Shown here one piece after another: positions 2,641 through 58,068 of a DNA stretch of 64,000 nt (position 1 is the stretch's first letter; each line of letters begins with the position of its first letter). The translations under genes were made by a program, and so were the position numbers. The stretch is taken from NCBI GenBank assembly GCA_964016885.1, contig OZ024742.1:190960001-191024000 (forward strand), read 5' to 3'. The notes under the pieces are model-generated. The model had not been told where the DNA came from. It ran no database searches and saw nothing but the letters and a program-made list of their open reading frames with translations. Source of the stretch: Eledone cirrhosa. Taxonomy: Eukaryota.

Positions 2641-3500
2641 TATAAAAGACGTAAAATAAGAAAATTATAGTAATTAACTTACTTACTTAAATTTCACTCC
2701 AACTAATTTCTGAAAGGGGATATACATAGTCTTCAAATGGAGACCATGGAGAATCCTTTCTTCATCAGGGAGATATTCTCGGCTAAGATTCCTGGCAATA
2801 CGCGGACACAGGGAACTAATACAAAAATAATTCAGTGGATGGAAAAAAGCAAGCGCGGACTAAATTCCAAGACATTGAAAATGTTCATGCCTTCTTGGTC
2901 AGTGGCAAATTCAAATGAATCAATCACGTGGCATCGAGGTTAATTAGTGAGGAGTGGGGTGTTAAAAAGAGAGTAGCCAAACTAATACTATGAACTATAG
3001 TAGTAATTCAGGCAAATTTTTGCTCAACAATATAATTTGGAGATAATTATAAGGAATTAATATATCTACCAACATATTTATACAGATGTATACTTACGCT
3101 AGCAAAGATATAAGTTTTGTTTTAGTAACTTTGTGGTTCAATACAAAAAGATGTAGAACAATTATATAAAAGACGTAAAATAAGAAAATTATAGTAATTA
3201 ACTTACATACTTAAATTTCACTCCAACTAATTAGTTTCTGAAAGGGGATATACATAGTCTCCAATGGAGACGATGGAGAATCCTTTCTTCATCAGGAAGA
3301 CATTCTCGGCTAAGATTCCTGGCAATACGCGAAATTTAAGTAAGTAAGTTAATTACTATAAATTTCTTATTTTATGTCTTTTATATAATTGTTCTACATC
3401 TTTTTGTATTGAACCACAAAGTTACTAAGACAAAACCCATATCTTTGCTAGCGTAAATATACATCTACATAAATATGTTGGTAGATATACTAATTCCTTA
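2641..3500 (-). mobile_element. Retrozyme-like module B: about 1.3 copies of a 524-nt monomer plus an inverted terminal piece
   Basis: 2641-2804 is repeated at 3165-3331, and 3332-3500 is an inverted copy of about 3048-3218. (TA)n on both sides. Same family as 27078-27594. Confidence 0.75.
3220..3299 (-). ncRNA. Type I hammerhead ribozyme (family B)
   Basis: Minus strand reads cttc-CTGATGA-agaaagg...cctttca-GAAAC-taatta-GTT-ggag. The sister motif at about 2696-2770 has a helix III deletion. Confidence 0.75.
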
Positions 3501-3659
3501 TATATATATATATATATATGTATATGCACATATATATAATTGAATATAAAAGAAAGATAAAGACAGATATATACAGTATATGTGTTCAAATCGACAAGAT
3601 TCGCTAAGGTGAAAAAAGTACTCACTATGGACAATAAGGTTTACCAGACTGAATTTAAG

Positions 3660-4137
3660 AATAAATCAAGAAAATAAATAACTACCTTTGAGTTTCTAAC
3701 TCAATATATACCTTTGATATATATATGTATGTATATATATATATATATATATATATATATATATATATATATATATATATATATATATATATATATATAT
3801 ATATATATATATATATGTGTGTATATATATATATATATATATATATATATATATATATATATATATATATATATATACATACATATATATATATATATAT
3901 ATATATATATATATATATATATATACATACATATATATATATATATATATATATATATATATATATATATATATATATATATACACACATATATATATAT
4001 ATATATATATATATATATATATATATATATATATATATATATATATATATATATATATATATATACATACATATATATATCAAAGGTATATATTGAGTTA
4101 GAAACTCAAAGGTAGTTATTTATTTTCTTGATTTATT
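3660..4137. repeat. Palindrome centred on an approximately 360-bp (TA)n tract
   Basis: 3660-3717 is the reverse complement of 4080-4137. The same palindrome with a short TA centre occurs at 51778-51856. Confidence 0.85.
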
Positions 4138-4385
4138 ATATATATATATATATATATATATATATATATATATATATATATATATATATATAGGTATAGG
4201 ATTATCCAAGATGCAGTGATGGTTAATTACTACACTGGATATGGTTGACGTACGGTAAGAGGTTACTCTACGAGTAATGGAAGAATTGTTCAAGAAACTT
4301 AGTTCCTGATCCTTCAGTATTCCGGAGTGTATATAAAGAATGAATAATAACAGGTAGACATCATAAAAAGGTAGTTTATTCCGTG

Positions 4386-4497
4386 TGCTTACAAGTGTTT
4401 CCACGGTGGTACTGCAGCCTAGTTCCGCTACGTGCAAATTCACAAGTATTTGCAGAACTCGAATATCCAATGCTGTGACCACTGTTTCCTCAGAGCA
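4386..4497 (-). ncRNA. Type I hammerhead ribozyme (mirror copy)
   Basis: Reverse complement of 4795-4906. Confidence 0.7.
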
Positions 4498-4794
4498 GAA
4501 TGGTAAATATACAATGTAAAAACCCTTAAGTGGGGTTGTTGGCGAAGATAGAGTGGAACAGGAAGAGAAAAATAATTCCGACCTCAACTATCTACGCATC
4601 TCTCCAAAAGTAACTAATAAAACCCCTACCATAACATTTTGATTAAGATATCTACACGCCACTCTCTCCTACTTCTCCAACCCCTGCATATCTTTCCTTC
4701 TCTCTCCATCTTCCCTACTTTTCTCTCTTCCTGTTCCACTCTATCTTCCCCAACAACCCCACTTAAGGGTTTTTACATTGTATATTTACCATTC

Positions 4795-4906
4795 TGCTCT
4801 GAGGAAACAGTGGTCACAGCATTGGATATTCGAGTTCTGCAAATACTTGTGAATTTGCACGTAGCGGAACTAGGCTGCAGTACCACCGTGGAAACACTTG
4901 TAAGCA
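4795..4906 (+). ncRNA. Type I hammerhead ribozyme with long helix II region
   Basis: tgct-CTGAGGA-(85 nt, gtggt/accac)-GAAAC-actt-GTA-agca. Confidence 0.7.
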
Positions 4907-55626: not shown

Positions 55627-55715
55627 CCGGCAGTTGCAAGAGCGGGAGAGTTCGTCCTGGTGAGGACCATTTGAGTTCGAAATGCATCGACGATTGTCCC
55701 TCTTGCCTCTGCCGG
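55627..55715 (+). ncRNA. Type I hammerhead motif with extended helix I and A6G core variant
   Basis: ccggcag..gcaagag..tcgtc-CTGGTGA-ggac..gttc-GAAA-tgca-TC-gacga..ctcttgc..ctgccgg. Confidence 0.7.
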
Positions 55716-55942
55716 GCACCGCCTGCTGGTGTTAGCTGCTGGTGTGTTATTCATAGCTATGCATTTATAAATGTTTATTTATAAACATGCCGATTTATTT
55801 GGAAATACGAAATTCAAATACATATTTGGATACAGCTACGTTCGAAGCTATATCCTAAATTCATATATATATATATATATATATATATATATATATATAT
55901 ATATATATATACATATACATATACATATATATATATATATAT

Positions 55943-56377
55943 AAGCAAAAGGGATATTCAATTTGTTGGTAATTCAACAAATATAAAAGTTTATAACTGA
56001 TTCAGTGCACACGACAACTTTTCTGGAGTATGATATTCAATGATATTAAATAAATGGAAACTATATTTATAAAACCATATTTATTCTATTATATATATTT
56101 CATGAGTACCAAAACTTTGGTACGCTCTCATCAGATAAAATACAAAGTTTGTTTTATAAATATTGACATAACCAAGAAAAGATACCTTAACGGTTCAAGT
56201 TTTTCTTCACTATCCAAGAAAAACTTGAACCGTTACGGTATCTTTTCTTGGTTATGTCAATATTTATAAAATAAACTTTGTATTTTAACTGATGAGAGCG
56301 TAACAAAGTTTTGGTACCCTTGAAATATAGAATAAATATGGTTTTATAAATATAGTTTCCATTTATTTAATATCATT
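55943..56377. mobile_element. Family D fold-back copy
   Basis: Arms at 56040-56207 and 56216-56377 with an 8-nt loop. CTGATGAgagcgta cores on both arms. TA flanks. Confidence 0.85.
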
Positions 56378-56639
56378 ATATATATATATATATATATATA
56401 TATATATATATATATATATGTATATATATATATATATATATATATATATATATATATATATATATATATATATATATATATATATATATATATATATATA
56501 AATTTTAGTGCAGCATAATCGTAGCTCTGGCTGCAGCATAGCTAACGAATGCAATCGGGTGGTGCTGCTAAGCACTCAATAATGTATATTGCCTTAGAGT
56601 TATAACATTACGTTTAGACAGCTTTGCAAATTTAAGATA

Positions 56640-57305
56640 GTGACCGTTATTGTTATACTTTGTGAGGGTTGTATTTTTATAAAATTGCCAGAAATAATAA
56701 CGGAACACACTCACTGTTTGATTTGGGGTTGGTTAACGCTTCTGTATCTTTTATATCGCCATAGTTAATTTATTTATATTTACCTTAGGTCACTATTGTT
56801 TGTTTGAGTATGGTTGATGTTGTTATTCCATTCGTTCTTTCACTTTAACTTTGGTTTCCTTGGTTCTATCTTAGTTGCTTCTCTGATTTGCCTACCTGTT
56901 GAGTCATTTTCATGTTTTGATATTGTTTTAATTTCTATGCTGTCTATATTACCGTCATGTCTTTGTCTTGCGTGTTCATATAGTACTGAACCGTTTTTTT
57001 TTTTGTCCTTTTAGTTCCCCCAAGTGTTGGTCTATTCTTTCTCCTATGCTTCGAGCTGTCTCACCTATGTCTATCGTTGTCATGTTTCTGCAACTATCCT
57101 CTGTACATCGTATGCTATAGACTATATTTCTAGTTTTACAATTTATCTTCGGGTTCATTCTACATATAAAACACTTCTTATTCGTACAGGGGTATCACTT
57201 GCTGATCAGGGATTTTATGGTAGTTCCTGGCCTTTCTTAGGGCCGTTCTACATTGCTTAGCTAATATTCCTCCGGGGGTAACAGCCACGAACATGACACT
57301 CTGTT
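56640..57305 (-). mobile_element. PLE GIY-YIG region plus UTR (same lineage as 45340-46795)
   Basis: SVMFVAVTPGG...CKTRNIVYSIRC...DIGETARSIGERIDQH...RQIREA...KNEW. UTR motif aaacagtgagtgtgttc is shared. Confidence 0.82.
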
Positions 57306-57402
57306 ATCAAAGATACACACACACAAACACACACACATATATATATATGTTCATATATATATATATATATATATAAACATTTAACATACATATATATATA
57401 TA

Positions 57403-58068
57403 AACAGAAAAAATGAAACGAAATTTCATTTCTCACTCTTAGTACGGCTGTTACTTAAATATAAGTATGTATACGTACATACATATATGTATACAGACGT
57501 ACAGTAGTGTGTACATATATATACATACATGCACACATATATATATATGTACGTATATATATGTGTGCATGTATGTATATATATATACATGCTACTGTAC
57601 GTCTGTATACATATATGTATGTACGTATACATACTTATATTTAAGTAACAGCCGTACTAAGAGTGAGAAATGAAATTTCGTTTCATTTTAACCGTTTATT
57701 GTTTTCGGTATGCCCGGCCGATTAACTCACTCGATATGCAAATTAGGTTGCTCAGCCGTTAATATGCATAAGCAAAGTATATACTTTCAGACGTTCAATC
57801 ATCTGGCAGGAAGGTATACGTTGCTGACGATAGTTAATAAGCTTGAAACAAGTACAGCGTTCCTTTGTCAGTGTTGAATAAATGAGCAACGATGGTTGTT
57901 AGACACTGTACGGTTTAATTCGGGATGTTTGTTTACAAACACACCGCGCATTATGATAAATGTTCGGTGAATCCATACGTACATATATATATGTGTGCAT
58001 GTATGTATATATATATCCATACTACTGTACGTCTGTATACATATATCTATGTACGTATACATACTTAT
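57403..58068 (+). mobile_element. Retrozyme-like family H: about 1.2 copies of a 430-nt monomer plus 5' inverted piece
   Basis: 57550-57638 is repeated at 57978-58068 (offset 430). 57403-57545 is inverted. HHR at 57818-57860. Confidence 0.85.

Follow-up and report, generated by a model that had tools for sequence, protein, structure and literature searches.

Head-to-head Penelope-like elements with two unequal 3' ends in a 64-kb stretch of the Eledone cirrhosa genome

The region analyzed here, called the window, is a stretch of 64,000 nucleotides (nt) from Eledone cirrhosa (GenBank assembly GCA_964016885.1, contig OZ024742.1, positions 190,960,001 to 191,024,000 of the forward strand; all positions below are those of the window). 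It has a GC content of 34.5% and contains 144 alternating TA tracts of at least 10 nt. It also contains decayed Penelope-like elements (PLEs) of at least two types and short non-coding repeats whose inverted arms are joined head to head, 5' end to 5' end, and a previous interpretation of the letters alone (the sequence-only reading) had listed 12 such loci. Published work is cited here from parts of the respective texts.

Head-to-head loci in the window

Inverted arms were found at all 12 listed loci by self-BLAST and pairwise alignments. With simple repeats masked, 35 local inverted matches were obtained, as compared with 0-3 in each of 10 shuffles. Sixteen of these matches correspond to the 12 listed loci, three to further PLE-type fold-backs (at 2336, 9212 and 36969), 11 to pairs of short interspersed elements (SINEs) and two to mirrors centred on TA tracts; the remaining ones are accounted for by an old pair at 49955, by two distinct PLE copies separated by 2.6 kb and by an 18-nt palindrome. 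Cross-copy comparison additionally revealed 3535-3716 and 7616-8838, giving a total of 17 head-to-head loci (12 listed and 5 added). The listed loci are labelled by the starts of the sequence-only reading or by the refined starts, which are 2645 for 2641, 4193 for 4331, 12234 for 12232, 26464 for 26470, 27076 for 27078, 37422 for 37421, 39577 for 39571, 43402 for 43487, 43787 for 43785 and 55944 for 55943. The 17 loci are given below with their hammerhead ribozyme (HHR) motifs, open reading frames (ORFs) and pseudo-long terminal repeats (pLTRs). "Short" and "long" denote two alternative 3' end sites, the long one including a tail.

2645-3502, family A fold-back: minus-strand partial tandem 2645-3331 (524-nt non-coding unit), whose 3' end, at 2645, is the short one; plus arm 3331-3502 to the long (tail) site; HHR cores on the minus strand at 2768 and 3295; arms 162/172 identical
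4193-4962, family C fold-back (3' untranslated region, UTR, of a Hydra-type PLE): minus arm 4193-4572, of which 137 nt are tail; plus arm 4570-4962, with its 3' end at the short site; arms non-nested, 241/243 identical; HHR at 4493 (minus) and 4799 (plus)
12234-12878: inverted internal copy 12234-12346, equal to the minus strand of 12554-12666 (102/113 identical), with a plus-strand Neptune-type GIY-YIG fragment at 12327-12878 (PF01541, E=3e-5, and tblastn); both listed ends without TA
26464-27034, family D fold-back: minus arm 26464-26620, whose end lies at a third site, internal and lacking a TA tract; plus arm 26621-27034 to the long site; non-nested
27076-27593, family A fold-back: tailed minus arm 27076-27429; plus arm 27427-27593 to the short site; HHR at 27321 (minus) and 27460 (plus); arms with 3/169 substitutions; junction overlap 3 nt
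37422-38250, family D fold-back: minus arm 37422-37965 (434-nt unit and tail); plus arm 37966-38250 to the short site; HHR at 37780 (minus) and 38005 (plus)
39577-43030, Hydra-type PLE: inverted tail-only arm 39577-39639, equal to the minus strand of 39804-39867; 5'-truncated upstream pLTR 39638-39700; decayed plus-strand ORF for reverse transcriptase (RT) and GIY-YIG at about 39895-42230; downstream pLTR ending at 43030
43402-43712, family E near-perfect palindrome: centre 43599/43600; left arm with 85-nt tail 43402-43486; HHR at 43592 (minus) and 43607 (plus); arms 110/113 identical
43787-44886, family I (Neptune-type) fold-back: minus arm 43787-44698 with GIY-YIG C-terminus and ~38-nt tail; plus arm 44699-44886 to the short site; arms 179/188 identical; tblastn match to the ORF at 36197, E=3e-22
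46915-47340, family F fold-back: minus arm carrying a tail of ~90 nt; plus arm to the short site; HHR at 47244 (plus)
55944-56377, family F fold-back: end sites and their assignment to sides identical to 46915; HHR at 56134 (minus)
57403-58068, family D fold-back: tailed minus arm from 57403 to about 57556; plus-strand partial tandem to the short site; HHR at 57824 (plus), from a looser scan and not the strict one
2336-2575, family B fold-back (added): tail left, short end right; strand less certain, assigned from the shared TA-abutting end and a B-box-like motif, HHR not found
3535-3716, family G (added): minus of about 51560-51722 and plus of about 51775-51806; arms without overlap
7616-8838, family H (added): minus arm from the short site at 7616; plus-strand tail piece 8757-8838; arms without overlap; degenerate HHR at 7696 (minus)
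9212-9783, fold-back (added): minus arm of 36 nt with its end at an internal TATAT site; plus arm with a decayed HHR-like motif, read by eye and not among the scan matches; strand less certain
36969-37395, family H fold-back (added): minus arm from the short site; plus arm with 26-54 nt of overlap and a 137-nt tail; non-nested

Polarity and TA boundaries

Polarity was assigned from type I HHR motifs or from GIY-YIG or RT ORFs, and at 26470 by alignment to HHR-bearing copies. On this basis, 12/12 listed loci have a minus arm on the left and a plus arm on the right, as the sequence-only reading had claimed. The 12 loci represent eight families, and the chance of uniform polarity is therefore 0.5^8 = 0.004 and not 0.5^12. 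The further claim that both 3' ends face outward into (TA)n applies to 10 of the 12 loci and fails for the left end of 26470 and for both listed ends of 12232-12878. At two of the ten, the left boundary had to be extended to take in the tail (4331 to 4193, 43487 to 43402), and the left end of 43785 lies ~10 nt from the TA tract at 43714-43776.

The same reading had noticed no opposite case. This is correct for directly joined PLE-type arms, since no directly joined tail-to-tail PLE pair was found in the window. Other geometries are present: two separate PLE copies 2.6 kb apart (54014/56664) lie tail to tail, and SINE copies occur in either polarity (33554-34150 tail-to-tail, 33957-34358 head-to-head), as expected from independent insertions. 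One old pair, at 49797-50488, is of ambiguous strand.

This TA-bounded old inverted pair has arms that are ~63% alike (174/274), and its left arm is 86% alike to another locus. Its TA-abutting end, shared with 52119 (52119-52224), fits the general rule, whereas tRNA-like boxes point inward; these boxes, like those of families B and K, were read by eye, as ARAGORN found no tRNA. The pair is possibly a two-template event or a counter-example.

At four places, flanking DNA is duplicated in inverted orientation around a central TA tract (3660-4137, 16389-16642, 20069-20224 and 51778-51855), and three of these duplications adjoin an end of another element. A junction specific to its locus is copied in the mirror at 3660-4137, and 16578-16642 directly abuts the 5' end of a family D arm. 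From the junction structures at 3660 and 16389, these mirrors look like snap-back copies of flanking DNA, formed perhaps at the second end of a PLE cut, or else artefacts; analogues of snap-back flanking copies are described for L1 (bioRxiv 2024.12.14.628481).

Two unequal 3' ends

A feature that the sequence-only reading missed, and that is the informative one, is the presence of two fixed, unequal 3' ends. Both ends were mapped in 14 loci (2336, 2641, 3535, 4193, 7616, 27078, 36969, 37421, 39571, 43402, 43785, 46915, 55943 and 57403). In all 14 the arms stop at different sites, approximately 40-170 nt apart, and the tail is restricted to one end. At the three others (9212, 12232 and 26464), one arm ends at an internal, third site. 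Within a single locus the label short or long is trivial, and the informative part is its recurrence across loci: in each of families A, D, F and H, a pair of loci shares the same two end sites, with one site on each side (8/8). Assuming a free choice between two equally likely sites, the chance of this pairing is 0.5^8 = 0.004.

Tail lengths are ~38 nt in family I, ~45 nt in family B, and 60-167 nt in families A, C, D, E, F, G and H and in the Hydra-type copy. The short-ended arm reaches further 5' at 2641, 4193, 39571 and 57403, and the tailed arm at 27078, 37421, 43785 and 55943; thus, either arm can extend further 5', as expected from two independent truncations. Two tails, 4193-4329 and 43402-43486, have no second copy in the window. 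In an anchored comparison, the similarity of the former to the Hydra-type tail 39701-39863 was reached by 9-11 of 2000 shuffles and was the best among 67 TA flanks; the similarity of the latter to the family F tails was reached by 1-5 of 2000 shuffles for one copy and by 48-53 of 2000 for the other.

Non-nested arms

Neither arm contains the other at five of the 17 loci, of which 4193, 26464 and 36969 are non-nested and 3535 and 7616 non-overlapping. At 4193-4962, the right arm has 147 nt of additional 5' sequence, matching the 3' UTR at 11875-12020 (0/500 shuffles), and the left arm holds the 137-nt tail. At 36969-37395, the left arm has more than 100 nt of additional 5' sequence, and the tail of the right arm matches 8757-8837 (63/87, 0/300 shuffles). 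At 26464, ~30 nt of the unit are present in the left arm and missing from the right one. A cDNA that folds back to copy itself is excluded at these five loci, because the second arm could hold only sequence of the first; a trimmed hairpin intermediate could still give 4193, 26464 and 36969.

TA overlap at the end sites

For each family site with a read-through copy, counted once, the template sequence beyond the end was compared with the TA run, leaving out the non-TA ends of 12232 and 26464. The template continues in phase with the TA run for at least 3 nt at 10 of the 14 independent end sites (6, 4, 6, 5, 3, 3, 4, 6, 5 and 6 nt; the misses are 0, 1, 1 and 0), against a background of 0.109 at random positions within the same elements (P about 2e-7). 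This suggests pairing between primer and template that is helpful and not required.

Relatedness of the arms

In families A and F and at 26464, the arms of one locus share private variants, and hence come from one source, a result predicted by every single-event model. The arms of 37421 differ from each other at 10/194 sites, about as much as from other loci (10-11); at one site, the right arm groups with 57635 and not with its own left arm. In the right arm of 46915, the 5' part (47183-47220) contains ~22 nt strongly diverged from the left arm and lacks ~14 nt, with 94% identity elsewhere.

Hammerhead ribozymes, coding copies and non-coding families

A descriptor scan gave 14 strict type I HHR matches, of which 10 have a palindromic helix III; 20 local shuffles gave none. 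Type I HHRs with a palindromic helix III are known from PLE pLTRs (PMC4209133). Three have an unusually long helix II (4799-4902, 27460-27531 and 50545-50662, with 51-99 nt between the core halves). The plus arms at 39638 (39638-39640) and 3331 begin at most 5 nt from the predicted HHR cleavage site, and such starts may mark the 5' end of a self-cleaved RNA; we judge two among ~30 arms compatible with chance. Recurrent 5' ends were also seen in family D, where the left arms ending at 26620 and 37965 stop ~11 nt upstream of the short site, and in family F, where those ending at 47182 and 56212 stop at one shared motif. These may be fixed RNA 5' ends or RT stall sites.

A second Hydra-type PLE, 5'-truncated, serves to tie the strand of the HHR and UTR to that of the ORF:

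9877-12217, plus strand: 5'-truncated Hydra-type PLE, the parent type of family C

This copy and 39577-43030 match a profile of 14 homologues over nearly the whole length of the profile. Both are broken and decayed; in the profile comparison, the motifs RWK, DKT, YRDD and CxCx5C were recognized. The 39571 copy has RWK at 40003 and DKT at 40249, and the 9877 copy has the CxCx5C linker and the endonuclease (EN) motifs CxxC and CxH at 11161, 11455 and 11539, the corresponding motifs being decayed in 39571. CCHH is absent from both, and there is no cysteine pair between the GIY and YIG halves. Pfam GIY-YIG was above the cut-off at 12327 and below it at 10993 and 36197. Pfam detected no RT family in the Hydra-type fragments or in five homologues, and the RT assignment therefore rests on the YRDD, DKT and RWK motifs. 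GIY-YIG fragments with two cysteines inside the core are located at 12327-12878 (plus), 36197-36511 (plus) and 44490-44702 (minus); they are called Neptune-type by their motifs and not by placement in a tree, and the Hydra clade label likewise follows from motifs and the profile match.

Partial tandems (pLTRs) were observed at 39638-39700, repeated at 42968-43030, at 2645-2804, repeated at 3169-3331, and in family D. Family C (Hydra-type 3' UTR) and family I (GIY-YIG end) are truncated coding elements. Families A and D form closed tandem units of 524 and 434 nt with an HHR, whose longest ORFs starting with Met encode 68 (in the doubled unit) and 64 amino acids. Two HHRs stand in tandem in family A, at 2641; no family D locus has two. 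The sequence-only reading had proposed that coding and non-coding families share the mechanism. The architecture is indeed common to the Hydra-type and Neptune-type elements and the 524-nt and 434-nt units, and the short/long head-to-head anatomy of families A and D supports a shared mechanism structurally.

Proposed insertion mechanism

The reading that we favour, with a probability of roughly 0.6, is that both ends of a cut TA tract prime RT at two fixed sites and that the resulting cDNAs are then joined. Autonomous Hydra- or Neptune-type PLEs and short non-coding HHR-bearing derivatives would insert in this way. The GIY-YIG endonuclease of the element would cut both strands of a (TA)n tract, as another PLE does in vitro, and both 3'-OH ends would prime RT on sense RNA from one source. 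One end would start at the short site and its partner ~40-170 nt further 3', at the long (tail) site, the TA primer often pairing over 3-6 nt with a UA run. Each cDNA would be truncated independently, and the cDNA 3' ends would be joined with little or no microhomology and the gaps filled. Two-ended priming of this kind would necessarily produce a 5'-to-5' junction, outward-facing 3' ends and a one-sided tail. A single tandem RNA may have served as template, or a pair of RNAs bound to a dimeric protein, as the arms fit either, and the non-coding families, judging from their identical architecture, were probably moved in trans by the same machinery. Single-armed TA-bounded elements are also present (50540-50725, 5-172, 6903-7378 and 16644-16980, with HHR motifs at 50545, 7226 and 16677, all plus), and the second arm is thus absent from some insertions.

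As to the twin priming put forward in the sequence-only reading, polarity alone lends it no support, because two-ended priming, cDNA fold-back and self-priming on an antisense transcript would, by their geometry, all give 5'-to-5' junctions. Two-ended priming nevertheless fits better than its rivals the non-nested arms (5/17), the TA overlap (10/14) and the extension of both strands seen in vitro. The self-complementary TA tract does not stand as a requirement, since two loci end outside TA.

A number of points weigh against two-ended priming. All counts come from one 64,000-nt window. Arms are nested at 12/17 loci, which fit fold-back copying equally well. Junction microhomology, which the sequence-only reading had suggested scoring, is short, and we claim no excess over chance for it: at the ten junctions with two references, the strict values are 1, 3, -1, 0, 0, -7, -2, -3, -6 and -2 (the last being the solo locus at 16644), that is, overlaps of 1 and 3 nt at two junctions and none at eight. 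With one mismatch or slippage allowed, the overlap is 3 nt at 4570, 2 nt at 39638 and about 6 nt at the palindromic centre at ~57553. As proof of twin priming, junction microhomology was rejected, because it is short and fold-back would predict it as well. The palindromic centres at 43599 and ~57553 are the feature read as self-priming in PMC3846280. Four of the 14 end sites have a TA overlap of just 0-1 nt, and some short-site TATA runs could be target remnants in tandems, which the long sites (4, 3 and 5 nt) cannot be. The PAc protein (Poseidon, Anolis) showed no homology between the RT start site and the cleaved DNA and no difference between strands in the start site (PMC11167929). The strand of family G was assigned from the shared TA-abutting end only, and we infer that 7616-8838 is one continuous locus, in the middle of which (7870-8757) the profile comparison gave no Hydra-type ORF remnant. 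The 4193 tail is a remote match, and the unanchored test is weak (30/500). As to the HHR calls themselves, Rfam gave no hammerhead at the gathering score, and among the 150 of 449 matches listed in an E-value run there was no hammerhead, just hairpin-type chance matches; folding was no better than in shuffles for four of five HHR regions and better for one. Since Rfam and folding energies gave no independent support, the HHR calls rest on the descriptor search.

Alternative explanations

One alternative is a single target-primed reverse transcription, after which the cDNA 3' end would snap back, copy itself and re-anneal to the other TA end at an internal TATA. It predicts the same polarity and accounts for the nested loci, for the private variants shared between arms and for the palindromic centre at 43599, and the flanking inverted duplications around TA tracts suggest that snap-back occurs here. 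However, it cannot make 4193, 26464, 36969, 3535 or 7616, where each arm has private sequence, it leaves the constant stop of the copy arm at the alternative site (8/8) unexplained, and the divergence of the 37421 arms with the grouping of the right one with 57635 speaks against it; we consider it unlikely. We regard as similarly improbable the published account of head-to-head junctions, self-priming on an antisense transcript (PMC3846280), in which the endonuclease would trim a free hairpin at its short and long sites before integration, the tail having been explained as endonuclease resolution (PMC8557442). Such trimming could yield the non-nested ends at 4193 and 36969 and a one-sided tail; however, the non-overlapping arms at 3535 and 7616 would require a cut within the unpaired loop, most junctions are not palindromes, and later work (PMC11167929) matched the tail with two sites on sense RNA at which RT starts.

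Two independent insertions in one TA tract, or a later local rearrangement, appear very unlikely. TA tracts are dense targets and SINEs form both polarities in this way, and the arms of 49797-50488 are less alike than its left arm and another locus; yet the PLE-type junctions have no TA tract, their polarity is fixed, one short and one long end are always combined, and the arms of one locus are usually closer to each other than to other loci. Fold-back artefacts of sequencing or assembly could be promoted by long TA hairpins, and in two TA-centred mirrors the aligned parts show complete or almost complete identity (78/78 at 3660-4137). For the head-to-head loci we give this explanation hardly any credence, as the PLE arms differ by 1-10% with indels, family-specific ends recur across loci and non-overlapping cases exist.

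Two-ended priming as a mechanistic reading is plausible and directly testable: short-long pairing and arm nesting can be scored in PLE-rich assemblies and can separate the models, which polarity cannot. The origin of PLE tandem and inverted structures, called undefined in PMC8557442, is a named open question, and the sole published head-to-head account that we found requires an antisense template (PMC3846280). The window provides a first count favouring two-ended priming and connects structures seen in the genome with the finding that PAc extends both strands in vitro. It also indicates that short HHR-bearing non-coding repeats are apparently inserted by the PLE machinery, a point relevant to how animal retrozymes arose. 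More generally, and as a tentative proposal, PLE integration might be coupled and two-ended by default, a dimeric RT-endonuclease priming the (TA)n cut ends asymmetrically with TA:UA pairing at most start sites. If this were true, the inverted pLTR, the one-sided tail and the microsatellite bias would be three signs of one step, common to Hydra-type, Neptune-type and non-coding retrozyme-like RNAs. In the literature searched, with subscription papers outside the search, no published statement of coupled two-ended priming for PLEs was found.

Comparison with known systems

The polarity and architecture of the fold-backs are already known for PLEs, and the elements described here are new members. 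Inverted 5'-truncated segments, which the sequence-only reading had called established for PLEs and which are seen at 12/12 listed loci, are indeed described in PMC8557442, together with partial tandems, the location of the inverted copy by the 5' end, a 30-40 bp tail often at one end, and a bias for (TA)n. Head-to-head is the most frequent PLE arrangement (PMC3846280), and partial tandems flanked by inverted repeats of variable size are reported in PMC2377424. The canonical endonuclease-positive PLEs (Penelope/Poseidon, Neptune, Naiad and Hydra) share with the window partial tandems, the inverted 5'-truncated copy, the head-to-head arrangement, the one-ended tail, (TA)n targets and a type I HHR in the pLTR, and their single ORF with RT and GIY-YIG is matched by the 39571 and 9877 copies. 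The tails in the window measure ~40-170 nt as compared with 30-40 nt, a typical and not a defining length. A target-site duplication would be masked by the (TA)n sequence. Strict short-long pairing, non-nested arms and TA overlap at start sites do not appear in the parts of the PLE descriptions compared. The Hydra clade (PMC8557442, section 11) resembles 39571 and 9877 in RWK, DKT, CxCx5C, the lack of CCHH, the C-terminal GIY-YIG and (TA)n, whereas the copy at 39701-43030 measures ~3.3 kb and the clade is "generally <3 kb".

The PAc protein cleaves and extends both strands in vitro, is a predicted dimer, starts RT at two internal sites bounding the tail and has an AT-rich target (PMC11167929), and in these respects it resembles the mechanism proposed here. 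It differs in that no start-site homology was seen and the inverted arms are unexplained in the portion cited, whereas in the window the TA run overlaps 10/14 sites.

In L1 twin priming, both target nicks prime RT and the cDNA ends are joined, which gives a 5'-to-5' junction (bioRxiv 10.1101/2024.08.27.596794). This junction is matched at 17 loci, with the target TA missing at 12232 and 26464, and the geometry of L1 5' inversions is shared by 3535 and 7616 (gap, or internal deletion) and by 26464 and 36969 (short overlap). However, the loci show no poly(A) priming, and the second primer would act at a fixed family-specific site and not at a chance site as in L1. Overlap (duplication) is the rule here, up to at least 243 nt, in contrast to 66% deletion and 17% duplication in L1. 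The mechanism resembles L1 twin priming and is not identical to it, as two defining features (poly(A) priming and the chance second site) are lacking.

Metazoan non-LTR (long terminal repeat) retrozymes are short non-coding tandem units with a type I HHR (PMC7229834) and, according to a preprint, derive from PLE pLTRs (bioRxiv 10.64898/2026.07.22.740005). Families A and D resemble them in both unit type and HHR. They are dispersed partial tandems with inverted arms and tails, whereas retrozymes form long arrays, and the word "inverted" is absent from the main text of PMC7229834. Unit A, at 524 nt, compares with a retrozyme range of 150-450 nt, and unit D has 434 nt. Retrozyme arrays contain at least two consecutive HHR units; here a tandem HHR pair occurs at 2641 (A) and none in D.

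Other repeats in the window

A further PLE-like family is represented by three truncated copies with a common 3' end (45300-46837, 53669-54099 and 56648-57308), and has a YVDD-type RT motif, a Cys-rich linker and a GIY-YIG-like stretch. A decayed non-LTR retrotransposon (RVT_1, E about 5e-9) occupies 29341-33248 and contains an internal duplication (31529-31711 / 32988-33170). An abundant SINE-like family of ~190 nt, with a B-box-like motif and an (ATT)n tail, forms a tandem cluster at 17973-18919; its copies were also found at 6156-6358, 14089-14274, 16231-16390, 22777-22966, 29200-29388, 33554-34358, 49553-49743 and elsewhere.

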